Below, piece after piece: positions 5,709 through 37,661 of a stretch of 46,115 nt of DNA; position 1 is the stretch's first letter, and each line of letters starts with the position of its first letter. The DNA comes from Clostridia bacterium (GTDB lineage: Bacteria > Bacillota > Clostridia > Christensenellales > UBA3700). Location: contig JAEEWC010000051.1 in assembly GCA_016287155.1 (NCBI GenBank), positions 1 to 46,115 on the forward strand, given 5' to 3'. A program made the position numbers and the translations under genes. The notes beneath the pieces are model-generated. The model was not told the origin of the DNA. It did not search any database and worked only from the letters and a program-made list of their open reading frames with translations.

Positions 5709-6554
5709 TTATTTCTCGTATTTTGGCTTAACTCTTTGCTCTAGCATTAAAGAGAATGCTGTTTGATGATCCTTTCTCTTACCATTATTTAAAGTAGCCA
5801 TTAAATCCATATCTTCTTTTGATAAAGTAAAATCAAAGATAGATATGTTTTCTATAATATGCTTTTCTGAACTGGATCCAGGGATTACTATAAAGCCCAT
5901 TTGTGTATGCCACTTTGTTACGATTTGACCTGGAGTTTTATTGTACTTCTTTGCTAGTGTTTGAACTTGATTACTATTTAATAATTCAAGTGTTCTCCCT
6001 CTACCACATAGTGGAGCCCAAGACATTAACTTAATGTCTTTAGCATCAAGAGTTTCTCTTAACTTTTCTTGTGGAAAGAATGGATGACATTCTACTTGGT
6101 TAACTTGTGGTAGGATATCAAATTCTTTTAATAGTGCTTCCATATATCTTCCTTCAAAATTAGAAACACCTATACTTCTAACAATACCTTTCTTATAAGC
6201 ATCAAGGATTAATCTATATACTTCTCTCCACTTTGGAGTTGGTCTATGAACAAATAGTAAATCTATATAATCTACACCTAATCTATCTAATGTATTTTGA
6301 ACTGCATTAGGATTATTATATTCAGAAGCCCAAATCTTTGTAGAGAGGAATAAATCTTCTCTTTTAATGCCACTATCTTTAATAGCTCTACCTACTGCTT
6401 TTTCGTTTCCATAGATATTAGCTGTATCTAGCATCTTATACCCATTTTTAAGTGCGATAAAAACGCTATTATATGCATCGTTTGGTTCTAATCTAAATGT
6501 GCCTAAACCTACATTTGGCATCTTAATACCATTGTTTAAAATCAGTTCTTCCAT
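5709..6554 (-). CDS. Aldo/keto reductase (2,5-DKG reductase-like)
   Basis: GLGTF, LDTANIYGNE, STK, DLLFVH, IGVSNF, NQVECHP motifs. Start at ATG 6554 (GGAG SD) preferred; ATG 6566 abuts the upstream stop. Confidence 0.9.
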   Translation of the reverse strand: MEELILNNGIKMPNVGLGTFRLEPNDAYNSVFIALKNGYKMLDTANIYGNEKAVGRAIKDSGIKREDLFLSTKIWASEYNNPNAVQNTLDRLGVDYIDLLFVHRPTPKWREVYRLILDAYKKGIVRSIGVSNFEGRYMEALLKEFDILPQVNQVECHPFFPQEKLRETLDAKDIKLMSWAPLCGRGRTLELLNSNQVQTLAKKYNKTPGQIVTKWHTQMGFIVIPGSSSEKHIIENISIFDFTLSKEDMDLMATLNNGKRKDHQTAFSLMLEQRVKPKYEK

Positions 6555-6566
6555 AGTTAACTCCAT

Positions 6567-9500
6567 TTATGATTCGCGCTTTTTAGCTTTCTTGCTTTTT
6601 ACTTTCTTAACAATTAATACTACTATTCCAGCAATGGCGCCTGCGATTAGTATACAAATCACAACAAATGCTGCTGTATTATCTTCTGCATATTCTTTTA
6701 ATTCATCCGAAATATATTGAGCCGTAACCTTATTGTTTGTATTCCAGTTTCCATGCCAGTTAGCGTCGCTTAAACCTGTAGGCATTTTTATTGCAGTTAT
6801 ATTCTCATCAAACGCCTTTCGGCCTACGTATTGCAAGTCTTTATTTAATTCAACTTTAGAAAGATTTTTACAACCCATAAATGCTTTGTTATCGATTGTC
6901 TTTAGTGTTGATGGGAATTGCACCATTTTTAAATTATAGCAATTATAAAAAGCCTTTTCTCCAATCGTCTCCAATCCTTCATTAAAAATAATACTCGTTA
7001 ATGTACTATTATCTTGGAACAATGCTTCATCAATCTTTTTTAAACTACCTTTGATTGTGAAGTTTGTTATATATAAATTGCTTATATAATCTCTTGTTAA
7101 TGACGTTGCATCTATTACTTTCAATTCATTTATATACCAGCCTGATGTTTTAGCAAAATATTTTGAAATGTTATCATTTGAGTAATTATTTACTTTTTGA
7201 GATATAGTTAGAGTTGTTACGCTACAATTTGCAAATGCATTTTGTCCTATGTTAATAACTTTACTTAAATCTAAAGTTCTTAACGCAGTGCACCCATTAA
7301 AAGCATATTGCTCAATAGTAATATTTTGGCCCTCAATATTAATTGAACTTAATAATTTACAATTTTCAAAGCTATGGGCATAAATTGTACTCGAGTCAGC
7401 TTTGATATCTAAAGACTTAATAGCTGTAGCCGCAAACGAATACTCTTTATATTTTACACCTGCATACAACGAAACAATTTCAGTTAAATTTCCGCAGTTT
7501 TCAAATGCATGTTGAGGCACTTCTTTAAGTATATTCAAATTTACTTTTTTCAATTGAGAACAGTTTGCAAACGATCCTTCCCCAATAGTTTCAATAGTTG
7601 AATCTAAAGCGACCTCTTTTATCCCAGTAGCATTGAAAGCATTTGCTCCAATTGATTTAATACCTTCAAATTTATATTCTGTAAGATTATTACAACCATC
7701 AAAGAAGTTATCTGGAATCACTTTTTGCCCTATAGGATTGATTTTAATACTATTAGTCATCTTTCCCTGAGGCATTAAGTTTGTAATACTTTTAACCACT
7801 TCTGTATAAATGTTATATTGTGTTATTCCGCTACATCCTACAAAGATTTCTTTACCTAAATCGCTAGCATTTGAAGGAAGTGTTATTTTATTCAATCCGG
7901 TACAATCATTAAATGCATAATCACCAATTGTTTGCACAGCACTTGGAATAGAAATACTTGTTAAGCTTTTGCACCCCTTAAAAGCGGACTCGCCAATTGT
8001 TCTCACCGTATTTGGAATAGAAATACCTGTTAATGACGCACAATTAGAAAAAGCTTCTGCACATAATACGGTTGGATTATTAGTTACTTCTATTGTCTTA
8101 ACATTATTTGCAAAATATGTTCCGAATATACTTTCTATTCCATTTTCTAAAAGAGGAAGTTTAATGCTTTCTAAATTTCCAATTCCAGAAAATGCGCCTA
8201 TGCCAATTATTGTAACTATATTTGTCAAATTAATTGATTTAATTTGGCAGTTCTTAAACGCATAATCTCCAATCTTTGTAACATTTGACCCGATACTATT
8301 CAAAACTAGGCATCCACATCCATCGAATGCATGATCTCCAATGGTTTTTATACTAGAGTTAATACTATTCAAAGTAAGGCCGCTACAGCCATCAAATGCG
8401 TGCGCAGGAATAGATGTCAATCCTGAGTTTAAAGAGATACTACTTAATCCTGAACAACCCCAAAAAGCTCCCTCTCCAATACTATTCAAATATGCAATAA
8501 ACGCACCATTAGTTAGGTTTGAACATCCTTTAAATGCGTTATTGCCTACTGCATTTATAGTTCCGTTAATAGTTAGATTCTTCAAAGAAGAACAGCCTTC
8601 AAAATATGAATTTGGAATTGTTTGGGAATTTGCGTCCAATGTAATAGTAGTAATTTTTGAGACTAAGTCAGTTCCAAATATTTGCATTAAACTGTTTGCA
8701 AATACTTTAATTCTAATACTTGTAATTTTATTACATTCATAGAATGCATTTTCGCCGATATTTGTTATGGCTTCGTTTAATGCTAATTCCGAAAGATTAG
8801 AACAGCCCTTAAAAGCAGAATTAGGGATGCTTGTTAAGGAATTGCTAAACTCAACGCTTTCTAGGTTTTTACAGCCTTCAAATGCGCCTACACCTAAACT
8901 ATTTATTGTAGACAAGAATGAAAAATCCGCAATTGATGCACAACTTCTAAATGCACATTCGCCGATATTGCTTAAGTTGCTACTCAACGTAAGCGAAGAC
9001 AAATTTTCGCATCCATCAAAATAGTAATTTGGGATTGTGTTATTATTATCAGTTACAACTATAGTAGTAATTGTTTTGTATGCAGACAAGAACAAGGTTT
9101 TAATTGGATATTCCATTTTTTTAATTGTTGCATTTGCAACCTTTTCGCACCCATAAAACATTGAATCATCATATTGGGCTCCTGTCGTATTGATGCTAAC
9201 CGTAGACAAATTCGTGCAATAACTAAATGCTGCATATCCAATTGAAGTAATTGAACTTGGAATTGTAAGATTAGTTATTGCCCCACAACTAATAAAGGCG
9301 TGCGATCCAATCGATTTAATACCATCTCTTAGATTTAGCACTGATAGTGATTTGCAGTTTGAGAAAGCATTATCGCCTATATTTTGAAGTTTTGTCAAAG
9401 AATCTATTCCATTCCACTTTTGGCAATTATTAAAAGCATTTTCAGAAATGCTAACAACATTACCTATCCCCGTAATAGTAGTTAAATTTTTACATCCTGC

Positions 9501-12500
9501 AAAGAATGAAGGAGCGATGACATTTGGATTATTATTAATATTAATCGTACTAAATGTTGAAACACTTGAATCTCCAAATATATAAATCAGCGCATTATTT
9601 ACCATTGGCATTGTTAAAGTTGAAGTAAGGCCAACTGAATCAAAAGCTTCATTGCCAATTGATGTGATACTTGAGCTTATCTCAGTTAATGTTAAATTTG
9701 AACAACCATAAAACGCATATTCTGGAATCGCTGTAATTTGTGAATTTAAATTAAATGTATTAAGCCTTGAACAGTTGTAGAAAGATCCCATACCAATACT
9801 TGTTAAATTTGGAATAAACCCAAATGTTGTTAACGCATAACAATTCTTAAATGCATAATCGCCAACGCTATTTATCGAGCCCTCAATATTTAATGTTCTA
9901 AGTGATGTAAATCCTTCTAAGAAATGGGCTGGCACCCTTGTGTAACTCGTAGCTAATGTTACATTTTCAATGCGAGCTGCAACACTGTCTCCAAACAAGT
10001 CTTTTAAGCTTGACTGAATTGCAAATATTTCCAAATTTGTTAGATTAGAGCAATCTATAAATGCATCATTACCAATACTTGAAACATCTTGTTTTAAAAC
10101 TAATGTTGTTAACCATATACAACCATAGAATGTTTCTTCTGCGATACTAGAGACATTATTTAATGTAATTGTCTCTAAAGCTGCACATCCTCTTAAGGCT
10201 CCCTTTCCAATTGTTTGAGAATTACTTATAAATGAAAAATCTCTCAAACTTGAACAGTTCATAAAAGCATAATCGCCGACATGCGAAACATTTCCATTTA
10301 CATTAAGTGTTTGTAAATACGTACAATTTTTAAAAAACTCATTAGGGATTGTCCCGTTATAAACATTTAGATTAACTGACTTTATATTAGGTAATGCAAA
10401 AGAGTCAAACAAATATGATAACCCGCTTTCGTATCTTGAAGATATTGAGACAGCGCCCACACTATTGCAACTTCCAAAAACATTATTTCCAAATTCGATA
10501 TTATCACCAATAATATCAACACTATCAGCATTAGAACAGCCCCAAAATGCTTTTTCGCCTACGTTTACAGCATTAGATCCTAATGTGATAGAATTAATCA
10601 TTTTGCAGTTATAAAAGGCTTCTTTCTCTATATTAATAATCGCGCTAGTATCGATTCCTTCCAACTTGGTACAATTATAGAATGCAGAAGCTCCAACGCT
10701 TCTTATATTTGCAAAGCTTCCAATGCTTGTTAGATTTGAACATTTATAGAATGCTTTTTCGCCTACCGTCTCGATATTTGTATCCGTATTTAAAACAACT
10801 AAGGCGGTAAAACCATAGAAATATTCGTTTGGCACATTCTTTAATCCATAGATTGTTGCCCTAGCAATACTGCTGCTGTTTTTACTATCAAAAACATTAG
10901 ACAAAATGACGCCATCTAAATATGGCATCTTAATCTCTTTTAATGAGTTATTTGCGCCAAAAGCTTGATCTCCAATAGTTTTAACAGATGAAGGAATATC
11001 TATTGTGCTTATCCTAGAATTATTATAGAAGGCTTTCGCTCCTATTGATTCTAGCCCATCATTAAGCATTATTTGCGATAAATTAATACAGCCACTAAAA
11101 GCACTATTCCCGATGCTCTTTAATGCTATATTCGTACAATTAATACTACGTAAATTTTTACATCCTTCAAATCCACTATCGCCAACGCGAATCAAAGATC
11201 CATTAATTATTACGCTATCTAGGACCTCATCATTTGCAAAGCTTGAATTTCCTATTGTAACATTTTCCCCTGTTATTGTAATTGTTCTTAACTTTGGCAT
11301 ACCATCCGCAAAATCGTTTGGGATATTTGAATAATTATTTAAATATAAAGACTCAATTTTGCCAGCTGAACTTCCAAAAGTAGAATCGATAGAATTTACT
11401 GCATTGTCGTTTTGCAAAGTTAAAGTTGTAATATTACGGCATCCGCTAAACGCATCGTTGCTTACAGAAGTTAATGTCTTTGGTATTTCAATATTATTAA
11501 TTGATGTACAATTTGCGAATGCCTCGGATTTTATATTTGTAATTTCTTTACCGAAAGATATAGATTTTAGTTTCGAGCAATCGTAAAAAGCTTTTTCTCC
11601 AATATATGTAATTCTATCAGAATTCTCAATTATTGCTAGGTTTATACATTCTTCGAATGTATTATCTCCTATAATATAGTCTCTATCTCCTAGAACAACT
11701 AATCTCAAATTCCAACAATTTTTAAAGCTAGATTCTTCTATTGTTGCATTACTTTCTGTAAATACAATCTCCTGAACAGACTTATTCTTTTTAAATGTCT
11801 TCTTTGAAACCTCTTCAACACTTAAATCATCAATCTTTGCCGGGATTGTATATTTCAACTTTTCTTCATTGAACAAACCATCTATTATGATTGAGTTATT
11901 ATTCCCATAAATATAGTAATATGTATCATCATATCCATCATATCTATTGATGTAATATCCATACATCGAGAAGAATGTTATTGTCATCAATACATATACA
12001 GCAACTGTGCCCAACGAGTATTTAAACATCTTTGGACGCTTATATTTTTTCAAATTCCTATATATGCCAAGTCCACTTAACAATGCTATCACTGATAAAA
12101 CTGCAAATATTGTCAACAAATTAGATCTTTCCCACATCTCTTTTAACAACGTGAAATTATACTTTGCTGCAAAAGTTGTAAGAATAGTAAAAGTTATAAC
12201 GCCAACTGCACTTGGAGCATATTGCAATGTCATATCCATTGCTCTTCTCATTTTTATATTTTCATCTACGATTCTTTGGGCATGTTCTATAAAGGAAATT
12301 CTAAAAATATTATATAATTTGTTTAAATTATATTTATTATATTCTTCATATTCTTCTTCGTTTTGTATGCTTTGAATTACTTCTTTTTTTATCTCAAAAG
12401 AATAATTCTCTTTATTCAACTCTTTATTGAACAACTCAGACAAAACTTTACAATGAGAAAACAATGATAAGTGTCTATCCAAAAACAAACTATAGTACTT

Positions 12501-13307
12501 TAAAATATATTCTAATGCGCTAAGCTCCATTATTGGAGCCTCATCAGAATAATCCATTTCTAAAAAGTTCTCACTTTCTGCACCAATTGTTTTTAATAGA
12601 TCATTTATAGGCATACCTTTAACGCATATGTTTTTGGCAATAAAATTACGTGCCTTATCTAGCAAAGAAAATACTGTCTTTTGCTTTGGCTCTTCTAGTT
12701 GTAAAACGCGGCCTATACGTCTTAATAACGCATGAATTTTATACGCAAATATTCGCAACTTGATTAACCCAGCTTTTTCTTTATACTGATGCTGTGCATA
12801 CTTATCTTTGATAATATCGGCTTGTTCTTCCCAAGTTTGTACAAATTCCAATTCACTTACTTTTTCTTTATTTATAAATGAATTAACATCAGATACAAAC
12901 TTATTGAAATTAGCATATCTATATTTTTTATTTGTTGGAAGTTCGGCAAATTGCTCCTTTTGGCCACAAAAATTAACGCCTAAGTTAATCAAATCCATAA
13001 TTTTAATTTGATCCAATCTTGCTACGGATAGAATTGCTGAACTACTTAAAGCGTGTTTTGCAATGTTTTTATCTTTTTCTATAATAGATTTAAACCCTGT
13101 TAAATCTTTTTCGTCGATAGATATATCATAGCCCAAATTTTCTAATTGCAAATCTATTGAATCTACAGGGCGAATAAAACTATTAGGGATATAATCATCC
13201 TCGATTTTAAAATCTTCTATTAAGTACTTAAGAGGAATATCCTTCGGAGAAAGAGGATTAGCTCTTTCCGCACTGATATATCCAGGTTCTTTTTTCTTAC
13301 TAGCCAT
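6567..13307 (-). CDS. Giant BspA-type (TpLRR/LRR_5) membrane protein, 2246 aa
   Basis: Dozens of IG..AF..C..L..I.I/LP repeats. Three hydrophobic segments at ~aa 365-455 and a C-terminal TM (AAFVVICILIAGAIAGIVVLIV) with a Lys-rich tail. Confidence 0.9.
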   Translation of the reverse strand: MASKKKEPGYISAERANPLSPKDIPLKYLIEDFKIEDDYIPNSFIRPVDSIDLQLENLGYDISIDEKDLTGFKSIIEKDKNIAKHALSSSAILSVARLDQIKIMDLINLGVNFCGQKEQFAELPTNKKYRYANFNKFVSDVNSFINKEKVSELEFVQTWEEQADIIKDKYAQHQYKEKAGLIKLRIFAYKIHALLRRIGRVLQLEEPKQKTVFSLLDKARNFIAKNICVKGMPINDLLKTIGAESENFLEMDYSDEAPIMELSALEYILKYYSLFLDRHLSLFSHCKVLSELFNKELNKENYSFEIKKEVIQSIQNEEEYEEYNKYNLNKLYNIFRISFIEHAQRIVDENIKMRRAMDMTLQYAPSAVGVITFTILTTFAAKYNFTLLKEMWERSNLLTIFAVLSVIALLSGLGIYRNLKKYKRPKMFKYSLGTVAVYVLMTITFFSMYGYYINRYDGYDDTYYYIYGNNNSIIIDGLFNEEKLKYTIPAKIDDLSVEEVSKKTFKKNKSVQEIVFTESNATIEESSFKNCWNLRLVVLGDRDYIIGDNTFEECINLAIIENSDRITYIGEKAFYDCSKLKSISFGKEITNIKSEAFANCTSINNIEIPKTLTSVSNDAFSGCRNITTLTLQNDNAVNSIDSTFGSSAGKIESLYLNNYSNIPNDFADGMPKLRTITITGENVTIGNSSFANDEVLDSVIINGSLIRVGDSGFEGCKNLRSINCTNIALKSIGNSAFSGCINLSQIMLNDGLESIGAKAFYNNSRISTIDIPSSVKTIGDQAFGANNSLKEIKMPYLDGVILSNVFDSKNSSSIARATIYGLKNVPNEYFYGFTALVVLNTDTNIETVGEKAFYKCSNLTSIGSFANIRSVGASAFYNCTKLEGIDTSAIINIEKEAFYNCKMINSITLGSNAVNVGEKAFWGCSNADSVDIIGDNIEFGNNVFGSCNSVGAVSISSRYESGLSYLFDSFALPNIKSVNLNVYNGTIPNEFFKNCTYLQTLNVNGNVSHVGDYAFMNCSSLRDFSFISNSQTIGKGALRGCAALETITLNNVSSIAEETFYGCIWLTTLVLKQDVSSIGNDAFIDCSNLTNLEIFAIQSSLKDLFGDSVAARIENVTLATSYTRVPAHFLEGFTSLRTLNIEGSINSVGDYAFKNCYALTTFGFIPNLTSIGMGSFYNCSRLNTFNLNSQITAIPEYAFYGCSNLTLTEISSSITSIGNEAFDSVGLTSTLTMPMVNNALIYIFGDSSVSTFSTININNNPNVIAPSFFAGCKNLTTITGIGNVVSISENAFNNCQKWNGIDSLTKLQNIGDNAFSNCKSLSVLNLRDGIKSIGSHAFISCGAITNLTIPSSITSIGYAAFSYCTNLSTVSINTTGAQYDDSMFYGCEKVANATIKKMEYPIKTLFLSAYKTITTIVVTDNNNTIPNYYFDGCENLSSLTLSSNLSNIGECAFRSCASIADFSFLSTINSLGVGAFEGCKNLESVEFSNSLTSIPNSAFKGCSNLSELALNEAITNIGENAFYECNKITSIRIKVFANSLMQIFGTDLVSKITTITLDANSQTIPNSYFEGCSSLKNLTINGTINAVGNNAFKGCSNLTNGAFIAYLNSIGEGAFWGCSGLSSISLNSGLTSIPAHAFDGCSGLTLNSINSSIKTIGDHAFDGCGCLVLNSIGSNVTKIGDYAFKNCQIKSINLTNIVTIIGIGAFSGIGNLESIKLPLLENGIESIFGTYFANNVKTIEVTNNPTVLCAEAFSNCASLTGISIPNTVRTIGESAFKGCKSLTSISIPSAVQTIGDYAFNDCTGLNKITLPSNASDLGKEIFVGCSGITQYNIYTEVVKSITNLMPQGKMTNSIKINPIGQKVIPDNFFDGCNNLTEYKFEGIKSIGANAFNATGIKEVALDSTIETIGEGSFANCSQLKKVNLNILKEVPQHAFENCGNLTEIVSLYAGVKYKEYSFAATAIKSLDIKADSSTIYAHSFENCKLLSSINIEGQNITIEQYAFNGCTALRTLDLSKVINIGQNAFANCSVTTLTISQKVNNYSNDNISKYFAKTSGWYINELKVIDATSLTRDYISNLYITNFTIKGSLKKIDEALFQDNSTLTSIIFNEGLETIGEKAFYNCYNLKMVQFPSTLKTIDNKAFMGCKNLSKVELNKDLQYVGRKAFDENITAIKMPTGLSDANWHGNWNTNNKVTAQYISDELKEYAEDNTAAFVVICILIAGAIAGIVVLIVKKVKSKKAKKRES

Positions 13308-13314
13308 TTATTCC

Positions 13315-21936: not shown

Positions 21937-21944
21937 TATTCCTA

Positions 21945-26800: not shown

Positions 26801-28056
26801 TCAATCAAGAAATCTATAACGCAATACCCTTTGTATTCAACATTTTCGATAGGATTCTTAGATAACACATCTCTATATTCAACACTAATTCTATGCTTTA
26901 AAAGAGGATATTTTGGATCATCTTTTTCAGTTACAACCTTACTTACAATTAATACAGCAAATAATCTCTTAACTTCACGTGCAATTCTTTTAAATATTGC
27001 ATTAATACTACTTTCATGAAGTGCCTTTTTTAGAGCCCCAATATTCTCTAGTAAATATATACCTCTTTTTCTCTTGATATAATCAAACTGTGTATAAATG
27101 CTATTCTTTAAAACATCGGCGTTAAACAGTGCATTAAATACACGCTCTGCATATTTGTCTTCATTGTCTTTAAATTTAATAATATCTAATGCTCTATCTA
27201 CGATGTAGTAATACTCCCCATCTTCATCAAAAAAATAATCATTGATACTTATACCATCTTCTAAGTCTAATTCTTTATGTATTGCTTTTACTGTCTCCAC
27301 AATAACTGGTCTTACTACTTCCATTAATATTTGATACTTTAAAGCATTATTGTTTGTGAATTTAAACTTATATGGGCTTGCCAATTCATGAATTTTCTCA
27401 ATCAATGTACTTTTATATTCTTTTAGGATACTGCTAATTACTTTTACAGATTTTGAAGTTACAGTATCATCAAGCGTTGGAATATCATCTTTTGACTTTC
27501 TACAAGAATCAAATGCTGAATAAAAAACTGCATATAAGTCATCCAAACTCTTAATTGCAAAAACTCTTGGCATTGTTTCTGGCATAGCTTGAACATTCTT
27601 CTTGCCCTTATCAATAGCAAATCTTTCATAGAAATTTCTAATACCGAATTTTCTAGCAAGTTCCTTCTGCCATTTCTCTGCCATATTTTCATTTGGAACT
27701 AAAATTAATAATGAATTTAATTCTTTCCTATAAGCAAGTTCGCTTATAATCATTCCAGCTTCGATAGTCTTTCCCATTCCTACTTGGTCTGACAAAATAC
27801 CACATTTACTGAAACGATATATGAAATCTTTTACGGCTTTGTTTTGGTATGAAAAAGCACTAGAGCCGGCTTCTCTCCATTCTCCAGAAATACCAAGGGA
27901 GATATAGTCTTCACTTTCAAGTTTTGCCTTTGGCTCTTCCTCTCCAGCTTTAATGACTTTATCTATTAACGCCCTTTTATTATCGCTTAGTTTTGAATTA
28001 TTGCTTCGAATAGATTTAATACTACTTTCGATGCTGTCATTCAAGATTATTTCCAT
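23887..28056 (-). CDS. SNF2/RapA-like SF2 helicase with large insertions
   Basis: ILSDQVGMGKTIEAG (I), LILVP (Ia), LIIDEAH (II), TATP (III), KVLLFSE (IV), EGVDLQ..INFD (V), EQRIGRIDR (VI). Confidence 0.9.
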   Translation of the reverse strand: MEIILNDSIESSIKSIRSNNSKLSDNKRALIDKVIKAGEEEPKAKLESEDYISLGISGEWREAGSSAFSYQNKAVKDFIYRFSKCGILSDQVGMGKTIEAGMIISELAYRKELNSLLILVPNENMAEKWQKELARKFGIRNFYERFAIDKGKKNVQAMPETMPRVFAIKSLDDLYAVFYSAFDSCRKSKDDIPTLDDTVTSKSVKVISSILKEYKSTLIEKIHELASPYKFKFTNNNALKYQILMEVVRPVIVETVKAIHKELDLEDGISINDYFFDEDGEYYYIVDRALDIIKFKDNEDKYAERVFNALFNADVLKNSIYTQFDYIKRKRGIYLLENIGALKKALHESSINAIFKRIAREVKRLFAVLIVSKVVTEKDDPKYPLLKHRISVEYRDVLSKNPIENVEYKGYCVIDFLIDMSYETLIIDEAHDYINVSYKLPMPKTITRNENNRTLAGNEFSDKVKLPFDMAVFNDYFVFPLFDDYYFINKDSMYPKVSALANRAYRKIFMTATPIKSDMIDFYLLKLLTESKDSYALIRKALYNLDDSMISELVDIIIREGKPDYRKYALNFYTYEDIIIKYVFLFKEKFANHKDFISYMKKNDYNQVKLEAIYEAAINFIREERFFNEELFDEVCFNKSRDEFEDKYKKVDKNGKEKIIKSIGELVKDPEGVVTWKKMYQGMGIRSTRHQTYCLDDKHTSYISKSLGNKVSSYQNLPLWSKRNGIVYFIKRNDKIFDIVVGNMLMDRINKHKQHHLDVKEASLFSDHVTQKEVFDQFVEDVREEIEVEKDDTYSLFNKMVENPLIEEIKRENDEYDNNMDNLSQDDTTSIEAARVEHEKNLKAIRSAFIPKQHAYEIYNWINDQLSGEREEFYSKSVGEISYTNFKLHMLLQLITDEKVTEDNKIKGKVLLFSEKNEEIDNYDAILDWLRIESDYDLWLKNYKETLGPLFDNNTLKATKFKEDKDFEKDYFARFKHWPLCVYNRRHPQDAWSIGKDIKDLSKANTDNKNCIIVVEPNKYEEGVDLQTSDILINFDIKYCPLKMEQRIGRIDRVKLSAVEQPNLKIISFAPLNDLSGFIVEFLAFELELFSSWKGDTTGIVSMPIGRHENSATFEDIMISIDKVYKSLYDYDATNFYAYGKELLDKCEIFKENFASDSKEMEYFNGIKELFDISEAQKQDEIKYFAFLKKGEPIVQKLLANIQSTKDDVVLFNELGEIAESYSEKVGQSNIKEKDTTNDINVFIKQINLYYTKMISFLKALIEYNKEEQIEKYDGGVQITTTSKRKQKNNTDEMSTILAELEKAKKAFSNQKEKLENESYLNISKIQDITNPILNRYTKHIKDKLTPIIDLFEYFCSVVRNNADNMTKFVSQLTVEDFSKIISGGDENE

Positions 28057-28069
28057 ACCTTATATATCC

Positions 28070-29932
28070 TTAATCTCTAAATCTTACCCACATTGCAGGC
28101 CTTACGCCTAATTTAAACACAGAAGATGCTCTATTTAAACAACCATACTGGTCTATACATTTCACTTCGTCTTTACCGCTTGAATCTGGACTTCTCAGCC
28201 ACCACCATTGAGCATTCTCTTTATCAAAATCAATGCTTTGTGGCAAGCCTTCTTCTTCAAATGCGATTCTACTGCCTTCAAATGACAAATATACTTCTAC
28301 CTCATTCTCGCTTAACAAGAAAATCTTATCGTATGTGTTTTCACATAAATATTTATTTGCTTTTTTCGTATATAAAGAATCTCTTGAATTGTCTACTTCC
28401 ATCTCAACAATTTGACTTTGCTCATCTTTATCAAAGCTATTCAATAAGAAGCTATGATTTAACCAATAATGCAAATTCGAATGGCTGTAGTTATTATCTT
28501 CGCGTTCATCATATTGGAATTGCTCAATAATCTTATCGCATATAACTAGTGACAATCCGTCTTTCTTATAAAGTGTTTTCCAATATAATTCTTTATTTCT
28601 ATAATTGCCTAATGGTCTTTTTTCACCTAGCCCTATATATATTTTTTGTTCTTCTTCTGAAATGTCATCAAACAAGAAATAATATTCTTGTCTAATTCTA
28701 TTTTTATCTTTTGTCAATCTCATAAGATTCTTCTTGATTGACATTATTTCATCATTTCTTTCTTGCTTGCCCTTTAATTTCGCTTTTAAATAATATTCCC
28801 ATAAAACCGCATCTTTTGGATAAATATCAAGTTGTTCATCGATAACTTGGATTGCCTTTTCGTATGATTTTCTATATTCTAGTAACCCTTCTATTTGATC
28901 TAGTTTTTGATAATAATCTTGAGAACGCGAATCTCTTTTTGTAACGACAATTGGGTTGTTTCTTATATTACGTGCTTCTATGATAGCAGCGCTAATTAAT
29001 TTTGCTAAGTCTTTATAATTATCTTTTTCAAAGCCATCAATCCAGTTTCTACCATCAGTAAACACTTTGGTTTCTGGGTCTGGTTCAACATTATCTAATC
29101 TATAAGTGATTCTTATTGCTTTTGGATTATGTTTTAAAACGTGACGAATTTCTTCATTACAATCTTTACTCTCTAAAGAGTCTTTTGACATTAGATATAA
29201 AAATACTGGGCAATGCTCTATGGCTGGCTTAATTCTTTCCCAATATAAACTCTTATCTGTTGATGCCTTTTCTAAGTTACGCTCACTATACCAACATAAA
29301 ATGTCGTTGTATTTTGTTTCAATATAATCAGCGATTTCTTTTGCCTTATTCTTTTCTCTACTGCTAAAGCAAATAAATACTTTTTTATCGTAGTAGATGT
29401 ATTTATTCTTTTCGATTTCTCTTGCTCTAAATGCAGCATCTAGTTTTTCTTTATAGCTATTGTATACACCTTGAGCCATAAAGAATTTTTCAATAGCAAC
29501 TCTTACCTCAATATCTGGGAATAATAAAAGTAATGTTGCTATTTCTTTTACTTCATCTAAAGTCAAAATAGTATCTGATAAATTTGCTAGAGTTCTTTCG
29601 TATGCTTGATAGTTATTCGTTAATTTATAATCAGATAATGCATATACAAAATTTGCAAAAGCATTTTCAGGATCATATCCTTTAATTTGAGTAGTAATGA
29701 CCTTTAGGTTATCGAAGTCAATTAAGTCGCTATGCTTTCTATTTAATGCGTCCTTGATAGTTTTCTTGAAGTTATCAATTTGCTCTTTCTTTAATTTCTC
29801 TGCGCCTTCTTTTATCTTTGCATATTCATCAACAGTTAAATGCGCACCACAAACTTCACATACATAGAATGTATCTCTAAAAATTAGACTCGATTCGCCA
29901 CATCTTGGACATTTAACTACTTCTAGTTTCAT
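28070..29932 (-). CDS. Zn-ribbon + helical + TIR + helical + DUF6273-like protein
   Basis: CPRC..CEVC N-terminus. TIR: KVFICFSS..., CWYSERNL, AIEHCPVFLYLMS..SLES.DCNEEI. C-terminal domain with SNLHYWLN, DKIFLLS..EV, WWWLRSP and GVRPAMW. Confidence 0.85.
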   Translation of the reverse strand: MKLEVVKCPRCGESSLIFRDTFYVCEVCGAHLTVDEYAKIKEGAEKLKKEQIDNFKKTIKDALNRKHSDLIDFDNLKVITTQIKGYDPENAFANFVYALSDYKLTNNYQAYERTLANLSDTILTLDEVKEIATLLLLFPDIEVRVAIEKFFMAQGVYNSYKEKLDAAFRAREIEKNKYIYYDKKVFICFSSREKNKAKEIADYIETKYNDILCWYSERNLEKASTDKSLYWERIKPAIEHCPVFLYLMSKDSLESKDCNEEIRHVLKHNPKAIRITYRLDNVEPDPETKVFTDGRNWIDGFEKDNYKDLAKLISAAIIEARNIRNNPIVVTKRDSRSQDYYQKLDQIEGLLEYRKSYEKAIQVIDEQLDIYPKDAVLWEYYLKAKLKGKQERNDEIMSIKKNLMRLTKDKNRIRQEYYFLFDDISEEEQKIYIGLGEKRPLGNYRNKELYWKTLYKKDGLSLVICDKIIEQFQYDEREDNNYSHSNLHYWLNHSFLLNSFDKDEQSQIVEMEVDNSRDSLYTKKANKYLCENTYDKIFLLSENEVEVYLSFEGSRIAFEEEGLPQSIDFDKENAQWWWLRSPDSSGKDEVKCIDQYGCLNRASSVFKLGVRPAMWVRFRD

Positions 29933-29944
29933 AAACCCTCTAAA

Positions 29945-31117
29945 CTACGCTTCCATAAACCATGCATCTGGATCTGGATTTGTATCTATCCCTTCTAGCC
30001 CTTCTAAATCACAAACTTTGATTGTAGATAATTCTTCATCAGTTGGATCTTGTATTTCTGAAACGCGGATAGATTGATTTTGCACAATTGTTTCAAACAA
30101 GTTTCTAACATCACGTGCATTGCCAAAATTCTTATCTCTATTTTCGTATTTATTATTTAAATAATTAACCATTAAATCTTCTGCGTCAGGTTCAAGAATA
30201 AACTGACTCTTACTACACATGCGTTTAAATATATTAAACATTTCTTGGCCTGTATAATCTTCGAAGTTAATGTATGTTTTAAATCTTGATCTTAAGCCTG
30301 GATTTGAATCGATGAAATCTTTCATTAATTCATTATACCCAGCAACGATTACAACTAATTCGTTTCTATGATCTTCCATCGCCTTTAGAATAGTATCTAT
30401 TGCTTCTTGTCCAAAATCACGTCCACCATTACCATTTAATGTATAGGCTTCATCAATAAACAAAACGCCACCTAGAGCCTCTTCTATTCGCTTTGCTGTC
30501 TTTTCTGCTGTTTGGCCAACATAACCTGCAACCAACTTTGATCTATCTACTTCAACTAATTGTCCCGTCTCAACTATATCTAAAGCAGCATAAATTTTGC
30601 CCATCAAACGAGCAACTGTAGTTTTTCCTGTTCCTGGATTTCCAGTAAATACCATATGATAAGACATATCTGGAACCGGTAATCCTCTTTCTTTCTTTAC
30701 CTTAAATACTTTAATTTGTTTTACAAATGCATTGACTTGTTGCTTTACTACATTCAAGCCCTCAAGACTATTCAATTCTGCTAAAACTTCATCTAAGTTT
30801 GGCTTAACAACTGGCTTTGATTTAGGCTCCTCTTTAGTACGTGTATTCTTAGGTTCAATTGGAGGATTAGATGGAACTGGTTTTGCACAGCCTATTTTAA
30901 ATCTACAAAACTCCAACTTCTTCTCGAGTTTATCAAAATTGCTCTTCATTAAAGCAACTTTTTTCAAGTCAGAAGAAGTACTTGCAATGGACTTACAAAG
31001 ATCCATTGCTTGTTCTATTGATTGTATTGCTGAAGTATAATCCCCAGCAGTCATTTCTATATCTATCCTCTTATTTAGTCGGATAAATTGGTCTTCCATA
31101 GCATATGCTGCCATCAT
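29945..31117 (-). CDS. CbbX/SpoVK-family AAA+ ATPase with MIT-like N-terminal helical bundle
   Basis: HMVFTGNPGTGKT, LVAGYVGQTA, GGVLFIDEAY, DFGQEAID, NPGLRSRF, FGNARDVRN. N-terminal ~75 aa helical (AGDYTSAIQSIEQAMDL) followed by a Pro/Lys-rich linker. Confidence 0.9.
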   Translation of the reverse strand: MMAAYAMEDQFIRLNKRIDIEMTAGDYTSAIQSIEQAMDLCKSIASTSSDLKKVALMKSNFDKLEKKLEFCRFKIGCAKPVPSNPPIEPKNTRTKEEPKSKPVVKPNLDEVLAELNSLEGLNVVKQQVNAFVKQIKVFKVKKERGLPVPDMSYHMVFTGNPGTGKTTVARLMGKIYAALDIVETGQLVEVDRSKLVAGYVGQTAEKTAKRIEEALGGVLFIDEAYTLNGNGGRDFGQEAIDTILKAMEDHRNELVVIVAGYNELMKDFIDSNPGLRSRFKTYINFEDYTGQEMFNIFKRMCSKSQFILEPDAEDLMVNYLNNKYENRDKNFGNARDVRNLFETIVQNQSIRVSEIQDPTDEELSTIKVCDLEGLEGIDTNPDPDAWFMEA

Positions 31118-31690
31118 TTACCCCCAATTACTAACGTCAGCCAAGCCTGCTGCTTCAGTTGTATCTTTATCAGCTTGTTCTATTTCATCTTCAATTTGTT
31201 TTGCTAATTCTTCATCTATCTCTTGGTTCGTAGAAGAATCAACTTTATTGATTGATGCATTTACTGAGCTAAACATAGTATCCATCTTCTCAAACTTCTT
31301 TGAGAACTTATTATTAAATGACTTTAATTCGCCTAAAATACCTTTAACTTCTGAAGACATATTCACTTTTCCAACTTCTTTCATGACTTCGCCTATAGTT
31401 TTATATAGGTCCATTTTCATAAAAGCTTCATCAATCATAAATTTAAATTGTTCTAACTTGTTTAGGATTTCTGTTGTCTTATGTCTAAAGATTAATTGTT
31501 GTCTTAAAGTTTCCATTAATCTTTTAACTTCTAAATTATCCCCTTGTTTTTTAGATAAAGTGATTTTTTGTTTTAGTGCATCAATTTTTTCATCATATAT
31601 TGAAATATGATTATTGATAGAATCACTTACCATATCAAACTTAACATCTATTTGAACCTTATTTGGAGTTTTATTCTTCTTATCAAACAT
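31118..31690 (-). CDS. Snf7/ESCRT-III-like coiled-coil protein (putative)
   Basis: 190 aa, all-helical pattern. Helical-hairpin turn SKKQGDNLEVKRL, Met-rich middle, acidic tail EIDEELAKQIEDEIE; its stop abuts the ATPase start. Confidence 0.6.
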   Translation of the reverse strand: MFDKKNKTPNKVQIDVKFDMVSDSINNHISIYDEKIDALKQKITLSKKQGDNLEVKRLMETLRQQLIFRHKTTEILNKLEQFKFMIDEAFMKMDLYKTIGEVMKEVGKVNMSSEVKGILGELKSFNNKFSKKFEKMDTMFSSVNASINKVDSSTNQEIDEELAKQIEDEIEQADKDTTEAAGLADVSNWG

Positions 31691-31701
31691 AATATTCCCT
31701 C

Positions 31702-32616
31702 TTATATCTCCATGTTTTGAACGTCAATTCCGCTACTTTGATTTGTAACAGTTGTTACATCGCTAACTTCTAAACCTTGATTTCTTACAGTAGTGTTTGC
31801 TTCTTCAAGTTTTCCAGCCATTTTTGTAACTTGCTTTTGCTTTGTATTTTGAACCATTGTATCTTCTAATACTTTACCGAATTGATCAACAATTTCATCA
31901 GGCAAATATGTTTCTTGATTTCTTTCAATGTTTGAAACAAGTGTTGTGTAATTTGCAATTTGCAAATCTAAAGCATCTTGCTTCTTTTGTAATTCATCTT
32001 TTTCTGCTTTGATTTGAAGCATTTGCTTTCCAATAATTTCTTGTTGTGCTTTGCCTAAAGATAGAGCTTCTTCTTTAAGTTGTGTAAATGTTTCAACTTT
32101 CAATTTGATTTGGTTGTTAATATTCTCTCTATTAACTTTAAATGTCATTAAATCAAGTTTGTTCTTTAGATAATTTCTATCTTCATAATATTTGTATGTA
32201 ACCATACTTCTTTGATTAGCAAAGTGGTCAATTTCATTAATAGCTGAAGATATACCATAGAAGTTTTCTTGATTGCAATATAAAACTAATTGCTCTACAT
32301 ACTTTAAGATAAAACCATCAATAGCATAAACTGCTCTTGCGTTTTGATCTACAGAACCTGTTTTAATATTTTGCATAATAGCTCTAACACGATCTGCTTG
32401 TTCATAATATTTAGTTTGAGAAATCTTGTTATATGCTATATTTAGACTATTCAATATTTCATGCTTTTGCTTTTCAATATCGTAAATAGCTCTTCTCTTT
32501 GCTCTATTCTCTTCACGAGACAATTCTCTATCATCAGTCTTTTTGATTTCAACACCAAAAATTCCATTCATTTCTTCTTTTGTTACAGGCTTTTCTTTCT
32601 TTTTGAACCATAGCAT
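31702..32616 (-). CDS. Helical/coiled-coil hypothetical protein (304 aa)
   Basis: MLWFKKK N-terminus, long heptad region at aa ~150-275, strong GGAGG SD. Confidence 0.75.
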   Translation of the reverse strand: MLWFKKKEKPVTKEEMNGIFGVEIKKTDDRELSREENRAKRRAIYDIEKQKHEILNSLNIAYNKISQTKYYEQADRVRAIMQNIKTGSVDQNARAVYAIDGFILKYVEQLVLYCNQENFYGISSAINEIDHFANQRSMVTYKYYEDRNYLKNKLDLMTFKVNRENINNQIKLKVETFTQLKEEALSLGKAQQEIIGKQMLQIKAEKDELQKKQDALDLQIANYTTLVSNIERNQETYLPDEIVDQFGKVLEDTMVQNTKQKQVTKMAGKLEEANTTVRNQGLEVSDVTTVTNQSSGIDVQNMEI

Positions 32617-32629
32617 AATTTAATTCCTC

Positions 32630-33568
32630 CTATTGTTTAGTTCCACATACTGAGCAAAATGCTGCACTCTTTGGAAGCTTAGCACCACAATTTGGGCAGT
32701 ACTTATCTGTAATATTTATTGGGGCTTTTGCATTTCCGTTTGTTGTTAATGTTGTGTCTACGACTTTTTCTTCAAATTGCGAACGATTTATTCTTGCCAA
32801 ATCTAATTCATGTTGAAGTGCTTTATCTTGTTCAGCTTGTCTTCTAGCATATTCCTTTTCATCTTTTTGACCTTCTAAATCATCTATTGCATATTTATTA
32901 ATAATATCTAAAACTTTTGTAATTGTTTCATCTGTTTCATCAACAGTATTTACGTGCATAGCAATAGAGTTTGGTTGAAGAGTTAATCCAATTTTTGATA
33001 AAACTCCTAATGTTTTTCTTGAACCCTTGAAAACGTCTTTAGCAACTTCACCTAATTTTGCATGCAAATCATTTTCTGTTGTTTCTGGAGTAATTATTTT
33101 CTTTATAGCATCTGAAATTTCATCGCCTAACATTTGTCTATATTTAGTATTAATTTCAGCTTGCAAATCAGCCTTTGTAAGAGTTTTATCGAAAGCTTCT
33201 ATTAGTAATTCATAATCAGTTACCATTACTTCAATAGAACCAACAACTGCGAATTTTAATTTTGCAGCAGGTAAATAACTCAAAGCGCATGTATGTTGAC
33301 CGGCGAAGAATTTAATCAAGATTGTATTAAACATCTTATCTGGGTATAGATAGCAATCTACAACATCCTTTCTATTTCCGCCTAGCATATCTGCATCTAA
33401 GTGATACGCATTTGGGCTTCCTTGATACTTCATTCCGCCAACAAATGCAACAGATCCACTCTTAACATATAGATCTATGTCTGACTTTTTTAGTTTAATT
33501 TCTGTTTTTTCAACAAGCACATCTTTGCTTGATAGACCAACTTTAATGCTTTGTGTAAATAAACCCAT
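32630..33568 (-). CDS. SPFH/Band-7-like protein with C-terminal Zn ribbon (putative)
   Basis: MGLF start, beta-rich head, GSIEVMVTDYELL..AF followed by helices and GLTL, a charged coiled coil, and terminal CPNCG..C..CG. Confidence 0.55.
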   Translation of the reverse strand: MGLFTQSIKVGLSSKDVLVEKTEIKLKKSDIDLYVKSGSVAFVGGMKYQGSPNAYHLDADMLGGNRKDVVDCYLYPDKMFNTILIKFFAGQHTCALSYLPAAKLKFAVVGSIEVMVTDYELLIEAFDKTLTKADLQAEINTKYRQMLGDEISDAIKKIITPETTENDLHAKLGEVAKDVFKGSRKTLGVLSKIGLTLQPNSIAMHVNTVDETDETITKVLDIINKYAIDDLEGQKDEKEYARRQAEQDKALQHELDLARINRSQFEEKVVDTTLTTNGNAKAPINITDKYCPNCGAKLPKSAAFCSVCGTKQ

Positions 33569-33570
33569 AA

Positions 33571-33933
33571 TTATATATTCTCCTTTTTGTCACATAATGA
33601 AACTTTTTTTCCGCATACCGGGCAATATTGTACCCCTTTAGGAAGTCTTTCTCCACATTGTTTACATTTCACAATTGCACCTAAATCTTCAGCTTCATAC
33701 ATATCCTCAGCTTCTACATTTGAAGATTTATAATTTTTCCCCGTAATTAAATAATCTAAAGAAACATCTAAAGCTTCAGCTAAAGTAGATAAGATACTAA
33801 AATCTGGATTCCCATCATTTTGCTCCCACTTGCTTACGGCTCTATCCGTAACATTCAATTTTTCGGCTAACTGTAATTGAGTAAGATTTAATTCTTTTCT
33901 TCGTTTTTTTATACGATCCCCTATTGTTATCAC
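33571..33933 (-). CDS. XRE-family HTH regulator fused to a Zn ribbon
   Basis: IGDRIKKRRKELNLTQLQLAEKLNVTDRAVSKWE..G.PD...LAEALDVSLDYLITG plus CKQCG..CPVCG. GTG start at 33933 with AGGAG SD. Confidence 0.9.
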   Translation of the reverse strand: MITIGDRIKKRRKELNLTQLQLAEKLNVTDRAVSKWEQNDGNPDFSILSTLAEALDVSLDYLITGKNYKSSNVEAEDMYEAEDLGAIVKCKQCGERLPKGVQYCPVCGKKVSLCDKKENI

Positions 33934-33990
33934 AATAAATCTCCTTATTTGCATTAATACTTCACCGTTCTCAAAGGTAGCATTTTAGCA

Positions 33991-34022
33991 AAACTCCACT
34001 ATCCGTTGAGTTTATTATAACA
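33991..34022 (-). promoter_or_regulatory. Extended -10 promoter with overlapping 23-bp palindrome (candidate operator)
   Basis: TGtTATAAT at 34022-34014; AAACTCCAC-TATCC-GTTGAGTTT at 33991-34013 (one mismatch). Confidence 0.55.
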
Positions 34023-34183
34023 CCAATATATATTCATTAAAAGACTATTTTTAATCTTTTATTAAGTTTTTACTTAAATCTGAAATATCATCAATTAAAC
34101 CAATTTAAAATTTTGATTATGAAATGACTATAAATTACTAATTTATATGACGTTTTATTTTTTAATTTACAATAGAAATATGT

Positions 34184-35888: not shown

Positions 35889-36089
35889 TCTAATCCCTCT
35901 CAAAACCTCACATAATTTTACCAATTCATATTATACAACACATAACTATAAGCTATACAAAATATAATAAATATTAGTGTTTAATTCTCTCGTGGCCCGC
36001 CACAGGTAAGTTATACGAACCCTAAAATTAGTAGTTGGTTATTGACCAAAAACATCCTAGGAAAACGTATAACAATTACCAGAAAATAG

Positions 36090-37623: not shown

Positions 37624-37661
37624 AGTTAGATCCTCCAAAAAATTATTTGCATTGGAGAAAT

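Follow-up and report, generated by a model that had tools for sequence, protein, structure and literature searches.

A bacterial ESCRT-III-like/AAA+/SPFH gene module linked to TIR, helicase and leucine-rich repeat proteins in a Clostridia genome

[quoted passage not shown] According to the accessible part of one survey, ESCRT components are identifiable in archaea and not in bacteria (PMC11188069), and in that of another a Vps4-like ATPase appears to be absent in bacteria (PMC7619361). In Bacillus subtilis, the ESCRT-III-superfamily protein PspA is recruited by YdjI, the SPFH protein of PspA-YdjGHI (cited in PMC11188069). The accessible text of Ravi et al. (2024; PMC11237479) reports that some bacterial Snf7-clade proteins adjoin AAA+ ATPases, together with Band-7 partners of PspA and transfers of VPS4-like genes to bacteria. 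Snf7, ESCRT and Vps4 are unmentioned in the accessible text of PMC7159879, and ESCRT-III occurs only in a reference title in that of PMC12065111. The cluster studied here lies in a 46,115-base stretch of a gut Clostridia bacterium genome (contig JAEEWC010000051.1, assembly GCA_016287155.1; hereafter the window), where eleven minus-strand open reading frames (ORFs), named g01 to g11 in the order of transcription, run from 33954 down to 5709 (Table 1). What appears to be new is the combination of a Snf7-type/SPFH/AAA+ module with Toll/interleukin-receptor (TIR), helicase and leucine-rich repeat (LRR) proteins, ESCRT-III/AAA+/SPFH modules and TIR systems each being of known kinds.

With the archaeal 'Meth_adaptin' loci (Makarova et al. 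2024, PMC11188069, accessible part), the window shares a Snf7-type ESCRT-III gene whose neighbors encode an AAA+ ATPase and a protein with SPFH, coiled coil and Zn ribbon, as well as Zn ribbons on accessory proteins and membrane proteins with large ectodomains. A likeness to archaeal Vps4 is found in a paralogue from the same genome, with MIT, AAA and Vps4_C domains above the Pfam cut-offs. The differences are the bacterial host and a window ATPase of the CbbX/EccA type, not Vps4; TIR, protease, SNF2 and BrxL-like partners are not reported in that part of PMC11188069, and adaptin-like, wH and GOLD parts did not turn up here, no search having been aimed at them. PspA-YdjGHI also encodes an SPFH (Band_7_1) protein and an ESCRT-III-superfamily polymer together, as scaffold and membrane polymer, whereas here g04 matches Snf7/Vps24 and not PspA_IM30, and an AAA+ ATPase, a TIR protein and other conflict-type partners are present. 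As for PMC11237479, its transferred VPS4-like genes come without snf7, its 'Tir' is the CesT/Tir chaperone and not the Toll/interleukin-receptor domain, and the accessible text describes no TIR, LRR or SNF2 link.

Within the cluster, g01 to g06 appear to constitute one conserved unit, a bacterial ESCRT-like module, and it is very probable that g02 to g06 work as a single functional unit. For their part, g07 (with the overlapping g08) and g10 represent families that recur with such modules facultatively. The best reading, to which we give an even chance, is that the cluster would be a membrane-based conflict or defense system, and not a housekeeping one, in which an ESCRT-like polymer serves as a platform for TIR effectors. 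This role is favored on account of the partners (TIR, protease, BrxL-like and SNF2 proteins), the variability of the sensor domains, the patchy distribution and the location of the window copy in an island.

The nature of g04 emerged from its family. Taken alone, it matched Pfam Snf7 (PF03357) with an E value of 0.0038 (17.4 bits, under the cut-off of 27.3), and phmmer yielded only 18 matches among 1.84 billion representatives. A profile of 14 family members (alignment A2) matched yeast Vps24 (6zh3) with an E value of 2.3e-7 over positions 9 to 185 of 192, and CHMP1B with one of 0.011; Pfam Snf7 was matched by 5 of the 14 members, the best of them at 2.2e-5. Since the profile matches Vps24 over nearly its full length, g04 is predicted to be a Snf7-type ESCRT-III protein, with similarity over the whole helical core, and not a PspA, which bears out the ESCRT-III-like label that a first-pass annotation, made by a model from the letters of the window, had given it. 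The g04 gene adjoins g05 with a 0-nt gap, in a conserved gene order, and its product would form a membrane polymer turned over by the partner AAA+ ATPase. A search of 40 relatives with the single g04 sequence found nothing, because the paralogue described below is too distant to be reached with one sequence; the A2 model detected that paralogue by direct hmmsearch, and a multi-genome profile search missed it.

This paralogue belongs to a second module of the same genome, split over contigs C15, C6 (1-4014) and C51 (1-5199). In order, ftsZ is followed by genes for a Band_7_1 protein that carries a Zn ribbon, a pair of small helical proteins starting with MGL, a Snf7-like protein (195 aa; E value of 3.4e-6 with the A2 model), a MIT-AAA-Vps4_C ATPase, a BrxL-like ATPase and a Zn-ribbon-TIR protein of 726 aa. 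The ATPase reached 30.7 bits for MIT (cut-off, 30) and 24.9 bits for Vps4_C (cut-off, 21.3), and its orthologue in the same-genus genome G004 had its best solved-structure score with the D2 domain of p97/Cdc48. An orthologous cluster with the same domains, ending at nrdR, is present in G004 (L070/L072; G004:C7:171000-197800). On this evidence the genome holds two Snf7-type modules, both tied to TIR proteins and one of them with a MIT and Vps4_C ATPase, in contrast with the stated absence from bacteria of Vps4-like ATPases and of any ESCRT components but PspA-type polymers. A third paralogous pair was observed in the same-genus genomes G001 to G006 (L035 to L039), where a Band_7_1 protein of ~330 to 340 aa precedes a protein related to the 208-aa helical one (34 to 39% identity).

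Related loci were chosen either by the g02 family (island type) or by Snf7 (core type). When 185,579 species genomes were scanned for the g02 family pattern, 7 loci were obtained, and metagenome contigs yielded another 7, of which L046, matching as a fragment of 41 residues, was excluded from all counts. The 28 places scored comprised the window, 13 further island-type places (7 in species genomes and 6 in metagenome contigs) and 14 core-type places, 12 of the last having been drawn from 11 of the 23 other matching genomes before their content was known. Local hidden Markov models and phmmer were applied to six-frame ORFs, with thresholds of E <= 1e-4 and 1e-6. Snf7 was found in 13 of the 14 island-type places and in all 14 core-type places, where it was the selection criterion. 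Proteins of the g03 type occurred in 13/14 island-type places and were not found in the core type, and the p208 family, not found in the island type, occurred in 10/14 core-type places. A classic/Vps4-like AAA+ ATPase was detected in 10/14 and 12/14 places (island and core type, respectively), a trypsin-like protease, which in the island type carries a Zn ribbon at its N-terminus, in 9/14 and 3/14, LRR_5 in 7/14 and 1/14, and TIR in 4/14 and 5/14. A second Snf7 paralogue (8/14) was restricted to the island type and BrxL-like proteins (3/14) to the core type, neither being found in the other. The g05-type AAA+ ATPase and the g07-like SNF2 protein were each found in one island-type place, the window itself, and in 3/14 and 2/14 core-type places, respectively, and g08 and g09 in the window only (1/14 and 0/14). 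Among 301 genomes of the order, the core type was present in 24 (14 of 150 genera) and the island type in 5. Thus, the core families recur together in the neighborhoods of other genomes, in agreement with the co-occurrence implied by the first-pass annotation.

In the relatives of higher G+C content, the recurrent order is a Zn-ribbon-trypsin-like protease, a g02-type SPFH protein, a g03-type protein, Snf7, a classic AAA+ ATPase with a g05-like N-domain, the second Snf7 paralogue (Pfam Snf7, 2.2e-5 in L044), a second classic AAA+ ATPase and a RuvB-like or third AAA+ ATPase. The related loci show two types of ending: a Zn-ribbon/TPR-TIR-LRR_5 fusion (L005), or a Zn-ribbon-membrane-ectodomain protein (F7), after which come two membrane proteins, an ABC ATPase and an LRR_5 protein whose N-terminus has a hydrophobic segment. 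Of the partners that the first-pass annotation had attached to the module, TIR and BspA-type LRR proteins are upheld by recurrence in changed orders and by TIR-LRR fusions, and SNF2 is less firm. The genes after F7, in L062 (390-4297), L064 (440-4316), L063 (21-2659) and L007 (18898-20954), are four conserved ones and then that for the LRR_5 protein; the four encode a ~300-aa protein with an N-terminal hydrophobic segment, membrane proteins of ~392 and ~318 aa with large loops, and the ABC ATPase.

A Pfam scan of g02 detected the Zn ribbon only and missed Band_7_1 (PF13421), and the alignment with a single Band_7_1 protein was confined to the ribbon. When the family profile (19 sequences, ribbon removed) was compared by hhalign with 30 Band_7_1 proteins of related genomes, a probability of 81% was obtained (E value, 1.2e-5; 226 columns); with 8 query sequences it was 32%. 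Structural support comes from a homologue, P0006 (39% identical), and not from g02 itself: 10 of 10 structural rows for its Atlas model were Band_7_1 plus Zn ribbon proteins, with TM values of 0.49 to 0.57. Fold and profile similarity point to g02 as an SPFH/Band_7_1 protein, so that its SPFH-like label held, and a role as membrane scaffold is presumed. The family is small, with 8 proteins only in 5.8 billion clusters. A sperm flagellar protein, the best PDB match of the A1 profile (7e-5), was set aside as a match of the helical region.

No Pfam match and, by PDB profile, no solved relative were found for g03. PhoU, its best PDB profile match (8.6e-4), was judged not credible, and the Atlas leads were weak (Snf7, 0.81; PspA, 0.79). 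Comparison by hhalign gave no family link with the core-type p208 family, which also has no solved relative. In the relatives L002 to L008, three small module proteins (A2, A4 and F8 families) end in an acidic stretch plus D-D-L-F, L-F-K-L-D or E-D-F-F, which may be a shared docking motif, perhaps for the ATPase N-domain; g03 and g04 of the window differ from it, ending in NMEI and SNWG. As for g01, it is likely the regulator of the cluster. A g01-like helix-turn-helix (HTH) gene stands in L076 on the same strand directly upstream of the SPFH gene, and in L002 and L006 on the opposite strand, further upstream.

The first-pass annotation had spoken of MIT-AAA+ ATPases, a type that was not supported for g05. 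Among solved structures, g05 matched CbbX (3zuh, 3.1e-53) and EccA1 (1.5e-49), and its ATPase is of this type, with AAA_lid_6 instead of the classic-clade AAA plus Vps4_C. The Walker A (GNPGTGKT) and Walker B (FIDEAY) motifs read in the sequence suggest an active AAA+ ATPase. In the N-terminal domain of ~75 aa, no MIT signal was obtained by Pfam on 7 N-domains with E values up to 10, by the A3 profile, which found no PDB match, by hhalign against nine core-type MIT-like N-domains (probability, 0.5%) or by a whole-genome Pfam MIT search with E values up to 1, which returned contig C6 only and not g05. One weak BLASTP match (E value, 5e-5) linked it to the true MIT region of the paralogue. This N-domain is common to the first AAA+ ATPase of the related loci (alignment A3), and a g05-type ATPase follows the Snf7 gene in L080 and L081 (60 to 63% identity) and in L084, from genome G306 (46 to 48%).

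In Pfam, g06 reached 50.1 bits for TIR_2 (PF13676; cut-off, 28) and 96.6 bits for DUF6273. A Glu within the motif C-N-E-E/K-N-E-W is invariant in the alignment of the TIR family (A5), and we take its column to be the catalytic position of known TIR NADases. With a score above the curated cut-off and this Glu in place, g06 is predicted to be a TIR protein and is presumed to act as effector or sensor. Its N-terminal ribbon resembles those of the relatives' protease and F7 proteins and that of the paralogous Zn-ribbon-TIR protein; hhalign with small alignments of the relatives' families detected shared Zn ribbons only. Only two ORFs of the genome match this TIR family model, one in each module. 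In L005 the Zn-ribbon/TPR-TIR family is fused to LRR_5. Over its N-terminal 286 residues, this fusion protein matches the Zn-ribbon-TIR protein of the core type with an E value of 1.9e-24, which points to a single TIR family whose C-terminal domain can be exchanged (LRR_5, DUF6273 or another). No membrane segment is present in the relatives' TIR-fused LRRs, so the LRR is not always an extracellular sensor. The DUF6273-bearing region of g06 was matched at 30 to 33% by G000 C176 22606-23856 and by L068 4170-4592, the latter upstream of pcrA in genome G004.

In PADLOC, which was run on ten proteins (g01 to g08 and the products of two upstream genes), g06 gave a weak match to ThsB models (4.3e-6), and no ThsA was found among the proteins scanned. 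Thus, the likeness to Thoeris ThsB and its relatives consists of that match and a TIR domain with the conserved Glu, while the differences are the missing ThsA-like partner among those ten proteins, the Zn ribbon with DUF6273 or LRR, and the ESCRT-like operon. TIR-LRR receptors exist in animal and plant immunity. The TIR plus LRR proteins of the relatives (L005) resemble them by analogy only, and differ in their BspA-type LRRs, the N-terminal Zn ribbon/TPR, the order of TIR then LRR and the absence of NB-ARC.

Both helicase lobes of g07 scored above the Pfam cut-offs (SNF2-rel_dom, PF00176, 32.5 bits against 24.9; Helicase_C, PF00271, 28.5 bits against 23.5), and motifs I, II and VI were read in the sequence as GMGKT, DEAH and QRIGRIDR, which characterizes it as a probable SNF2 helicase. 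Its matches to the PADLOC models DrmD (3.9e-23), DpdE (4.4e-19) and BrxH recall the helicases of DISARM, Dpd and BREX. However, no DrmA/B/C, Dpd or BREX partner or other signature protein was found among the ten proteins scanned, a set to which the Dam methylase and DndB-like genes 10 kb upstream did not belong, and g07 falls into a separate subfamily of ~1300 aa. This subfamily is sharply bounded, with 97 proteins of 1253 to 1471 aa (E <= 1e-94) among the matches listed and then a drop to generic SNF2 proteins; the few members with a source name come from Clostridia or Clostridiales metagenome-assembled genomes. It is present in 4 of the 301 genomes of the order. In G306 (L084), the gene for a relative of 1297 aa (32% over 746 aa; E value, 5e-67) comes ninth in an operon that holds a Snf7 module and that also encodes a Zn-ribbon protein resembling g02, small helical proteins, an AAA+ ATPase of the g05 type, a Snf7-like protein and an AAA+ protein matching both the Vps4-like N-terminal region and RuvB-like ATPases. 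A more distant SNF2 protein occurs in the G247 cluster. The SNF2 gene therefore stood only in part as a component of the proposed system: the same family recurs in two other places, but in two of the three other genomes of the order it stands without the module. Given the Snf7 module of the G306 operon and no detectable one near the gene in G287 and G315, the link is considered real but facultative. In L086 (G287:C66 1-20000), the 1477-aa g07-like frame lies among same-strand frames of 771, 647, 1691 and 1232 aa (stop to stop), and no Snf7, SPFH or TIR match was obtained there.

For g08, no Pfam or PADLOC match was found, and its relatives were itself and one protein 86% identical to it. It carries the motif CxxC-x(6-25)-CxxC, present in 41 of the 1252 ORFs of the genome, four of which are g01, g02, g06 and g08; this count is post hoc, the motif having been spotted before counting. 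Neighboring ORFs with CxxCG...CxxCG were also seen in G000 C147 (4472-5065 and 6899-9925), the larger of which (1008 aa) is LRR_5-like as well, and they are possibly another Zn-ribbon-LRR pair away from the modules.

The giant proteins differ in their ties to the module. In g10, a 360-aa N-terminal region without hydrophobic segments is followed by membrane segments at ~394-419 and nearby, the LRR ectodomain and a C-terminal anchor (2207-2238), the membrane segments here and in g09 being taken from a Kyte-Doolittle window. With its LRR_5 repeats and predicted membrane anchoring, g10 is a putative BspA-type LRR surface protein. Of the 8 island-type places that span at least 16 kb, 7 have an LRR_5 gene in the stretch examined, and in L062 to L064 this gene closes the conserved part of the cluster. 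Since LRR_5 genes are frequent in these genomes, the LRR link is carried by the fusions more than by adjacency. By contrast, the inclusion of g08, g09 and g11 in the system was not sustained, none of them recurring in the other places searched: g09 appears lineage-specific, its membership in the system unsupported, and g11, without a relative in L002 to L008 or L040 to L046 (the places searched for it), is probably a bystander. In contigs of other runs, g09 carries a 9-base insertion at 15627-15633 and a 2+10-base deletion at 17050-17063; as these changes are in frame overall, the length of its repeats appears to vary among strains.

The window has a G+C content of ~31% and a GC skew that is negative throughout. 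The eleven co-oriented genes and their tight spacing were confirmed, the coordinates giving the same gaps of 2, 13, 11, 0, 12, 13, -8, 8, 7 and 0 nt, of which the -8 gap (g07/g08) uses the g08 ATG at 23894, the start of the called 649-aa product P0027. All 41 listed window ORFs of at least 150 aa lie on the minus strand, and the tight spacing extends past g11 to pcrA (46-nt gap) and ligA (12-nt gap), so that co-orientation and short gaps are weak evidence of a single system. Along the minus strand, a strong terminator-like hairpin between genes first appears after ligA (1351-1323). Promoter-like sites were no more frequent than in shuffled sequences (82 versus 86.3 expected, and 97 versus 107.6), nor were terminator-like matches. 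The one promoter of the first-pass annotation gained no support from these scans, and neither did a single transcript of all eleven genes. The arrangement is not an assembly chimera, since a contig of 15,467 bases from another study's run is collinear with window positions 18683-34066, with 389 differences.

According to the mechanism that we propose, the SPFH protein would mark out an area of the membrane's inner face, where g03, as a helical adaptor, and g04 would polymerize, the AAA+ ATPase turning the polymer over. Zn-ribbon partners would dock on this platform; in the window the partner would be TIR, and in the relatives it would be a trypsin-like protease or a BrxL-like or RuvB-like ATPase. 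Perturbation of the envelope, or a ligand sensed by the LRR or DUF6273 domain, would then cluster the TIR domains and trigger NAD+ cleavage or signaling, like the clustering known from other immune systems based on TIR. The SNF2 helicase might act on nucleic acid, g01 would be a regulator with HTH and Zn ribbon, and the variable C-terminal domain of g06 looks sensor-like. In a bolder form, which we hold tentatively and with more doubt than belief, some gut Clostridia would have recruited true ESCRT machinery as an innate-immune membrane platform, in which a polymer driven by damage or ligand clusters Zn-ribbon TIR, protease and helicase effectors. If true, this would be the first ESCRT-III-based defense system, and the connection of ESCRT with cell-death immunity that is seen in eukaryotes would have a prokaryotic precedent.

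Several observations speak against a role in defense or against the proposed mechanism. A Vps4-like mechanism needs a MIT domain, which g05 failed to reveal in four tests. TIR was found in only 9 of the 28 places (4 island-type and 5 core-type), and the TIR model was built from four of these (the window, L005, L070/L072 and L071/L073), which match by construction, leaving L002, L006, L078, L080 and L081 as matches independent of the model. The flanks of L005 hold signaling genes and not defense genes. Many of the places are kin, so that the counts overstate independence. For g08 and g09 no relative was found in the 27 other places, g07-like SNF2 proteins occur in G287 and G315 (one genus) without a detectable module within 20 kb and 6.2 kb, respectively, and LRR_5 is common, in 12 of the 1252 ORFs of the genome and with 12 to 92 tblastn matches per genome in five relatives. 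The run search listed no RNA run as containing the stretch. Finally, PADLOC assigned no named system to the ten proteins scanned, nor was a description of the combination found in the literature, the supplementary neighborhood tables of PMC11237479 and PMC11188069 lying beyond that search; within these bounds, the earlier statement that the combination is not a named system stands.

These points have to be set against what the alternatives explain. The main one, unlikely but substantial, is a non-immune membrane machine, the counterpart of archaeal ESCRT sorting or of PspA-YdjI, engaged in membrane repair or budding, perhaps of vesicles that carry the giant LRR/MBG surface proteins, or in the insertion or turnover of these proteins, with TIR serving as an adaptor or in metabolic regulation and not as an immune effector. 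Archaeal Meth_adaptin loci, which the accessible part of PMC11188069 reads as protein-sorting machines, consist of ESCRT-III and Vps4 with an SPFH-coiled coil-Zn ribbon protein next to them, and in 6 of 6 same-genus genomes the core paralogue has kept its place near ftsZ or the gene of a sigma factor, as a housekeeping system would. The F7 ectodomain protein, the two membrane proteins with their ABC ATPase and the LRR proteins with a hydrophobic N-terminus in the relatives would also suit such a machine, as would the 360-aa region preceding the membrane segments of g10. However, a TIR domain that keeps its Glu, trypsin-like proteases and BrxL-like, RuvB-like and SNF2 ATPases would be unexpected for sorting, TIR-fused LRRs have no membrane segment, and the spread is patchy (24/301 and 5/301 genomes). 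Moreover, three genomes of the genus show no synteny in the region upstream of pcrA, and the window copy appears to be an accessory, divergent paralogue in a variable, defense-rich island.

A rather improbable alternative is juxtaposition, with only g01 to g06 forming a unit, g07 and g08 a separate helicase defense, g09 and g10 ordinary adhesins, and g11, pcrA and ligA housekeeping genes, the short gaps reflecting a compact, one-strand genome region and not one system. The single strand, the spacing that reaches pcrA-ligA, the failure of g08, g09 and g11 to recur, the SNF2 family without the module in G287 and G315, and the 12 LRR_5 ORFs of the genome all agree with it. Yet the SNF2 family, though present in only 4 of 301 genomes, lies inside the Snf7 operon of G306, with a distant SNF2 in the G247 cluster; TIR-LRR fusions exist; the LRR_5 gene is present in 7 of 8 island-type places of at least 16 kb and is the last conserved gene in L062 to L064; and g08 shares the Zn-ribbon theme. 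Hardly probable at all is that the cluster is cargo of a phage, plasmid or other mobile element and serves that element, for example in superinfection exclusion or egress. The accessory, patchy distribution and the lack of synteny upstream of pcrA in same-genus genomes would fit, but none of 50,697 phage and 72,556 plasmid records matched g02, nor did anything in IMG/VR, and no integrase or phage structural gene was found among the window ORFs scanned, up to 41475. A conflict or defense role for the ESCRT-like module continues to be the reading we prefer.

Should the module remodel membranes, it would offer a tractable bacterial model for ESCRT-III/AAA+ mechanics and bear on a possible transfer of such systems between gut archaea and bacteria. 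Should it be a defense system, its principle would be new, in that TIR effectors would assemble on a membrane polymer as their platform, and it would extend the TIR-LRR pairing of animal and plant immunity to bacteria. Either way, the orphan families of g03 and g08 and the ~1300-aa SNF2 subfamily gain a concrete, testable role.

Table 1. Predicted features of the window, with coordinates, strand and basis of assignment
Feature	Coordinates	Strand	Basis or remark
g01, XRE-type HTH + C-terminal Zn ribbon	33571..33954	-	Pfam HTH_3 9.3e-18, Zn_Ribbon_1 1.7e-6
g02, divergent SPFH/Band_7_1 + coiled coil + C-terminal Zn ribbon	32630..33568	-	Family profile comparison
g03, 304-aa helical protein, family unassigned	31702..32616	-	Always between SPFH and Snf7 genes; 13/14 island-type places
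g04, Snf7-type ESCRT-III	31118..31690	-	Family profile versus Vps24
g05, CbbX/EccA/SpoVK-type AAA+ + ~75-aa N-terminal helical domain	29945..31117	-	Pfam AAA + AAA_lid_6
g06, TFIIB-type Zn ribbon + helical region + TIR + DUF6273	28070..29932	-	Pfam Zn_Ribbon_TF, TIR_2, DUF6273
g07, 1389-aa SNF2 helicase, Clostridia-specific subfamily	23887..28056	-	Pfam SNF2-rel_dom + Helicase_C
g08, 649-aa Cys-rich orphan	21945..23894	-	ORF 21945-23933, ATG 23894; overlaps g07 by 8 nt
g09, 2873-aa protein, ~5-6 N-terminal membrane segments, then MBG-like repeats	13315..21936	-	MBG_2 E 0.0028, below cut-off; hydropathy
g10, 2246-aa BspA-LRR protein	6567..13307	-	LRR_5 (PF13306), 16 stretches, 1043.7 bits
g11, aldo-keto reductase	5709..6566	-	Pfam Aldo_ket_red 2.5e-49
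Promoter-like hexamer pair TTAAAA-18-TATATT	34025..34054	-	Upstream of g01; weak candidate, matches not enriched versus shuffles
NERD + topoisomerase Zn ribbon	34184-34897	-	Upstream of g01
PD-(D/E)XK	34956-35924	-	Upstream of g01
RNase III with two dsRBDs	36538-37638	-	Upstream of g01
DUF7226	37972-38424	-	Upstream of g01
Dam-type methylase	38417-39244	-	Upstream of g01
DndB-like, 743 aa	39244-41475	-	Upstream of g01

Family scans covered the window proteins up to 41475, most flanks of the related loci lying outside them. Among the genes located upstream of g01, the trio formed by the methylase, the DndB-like protein and DUF7226 may be a modification-based system.

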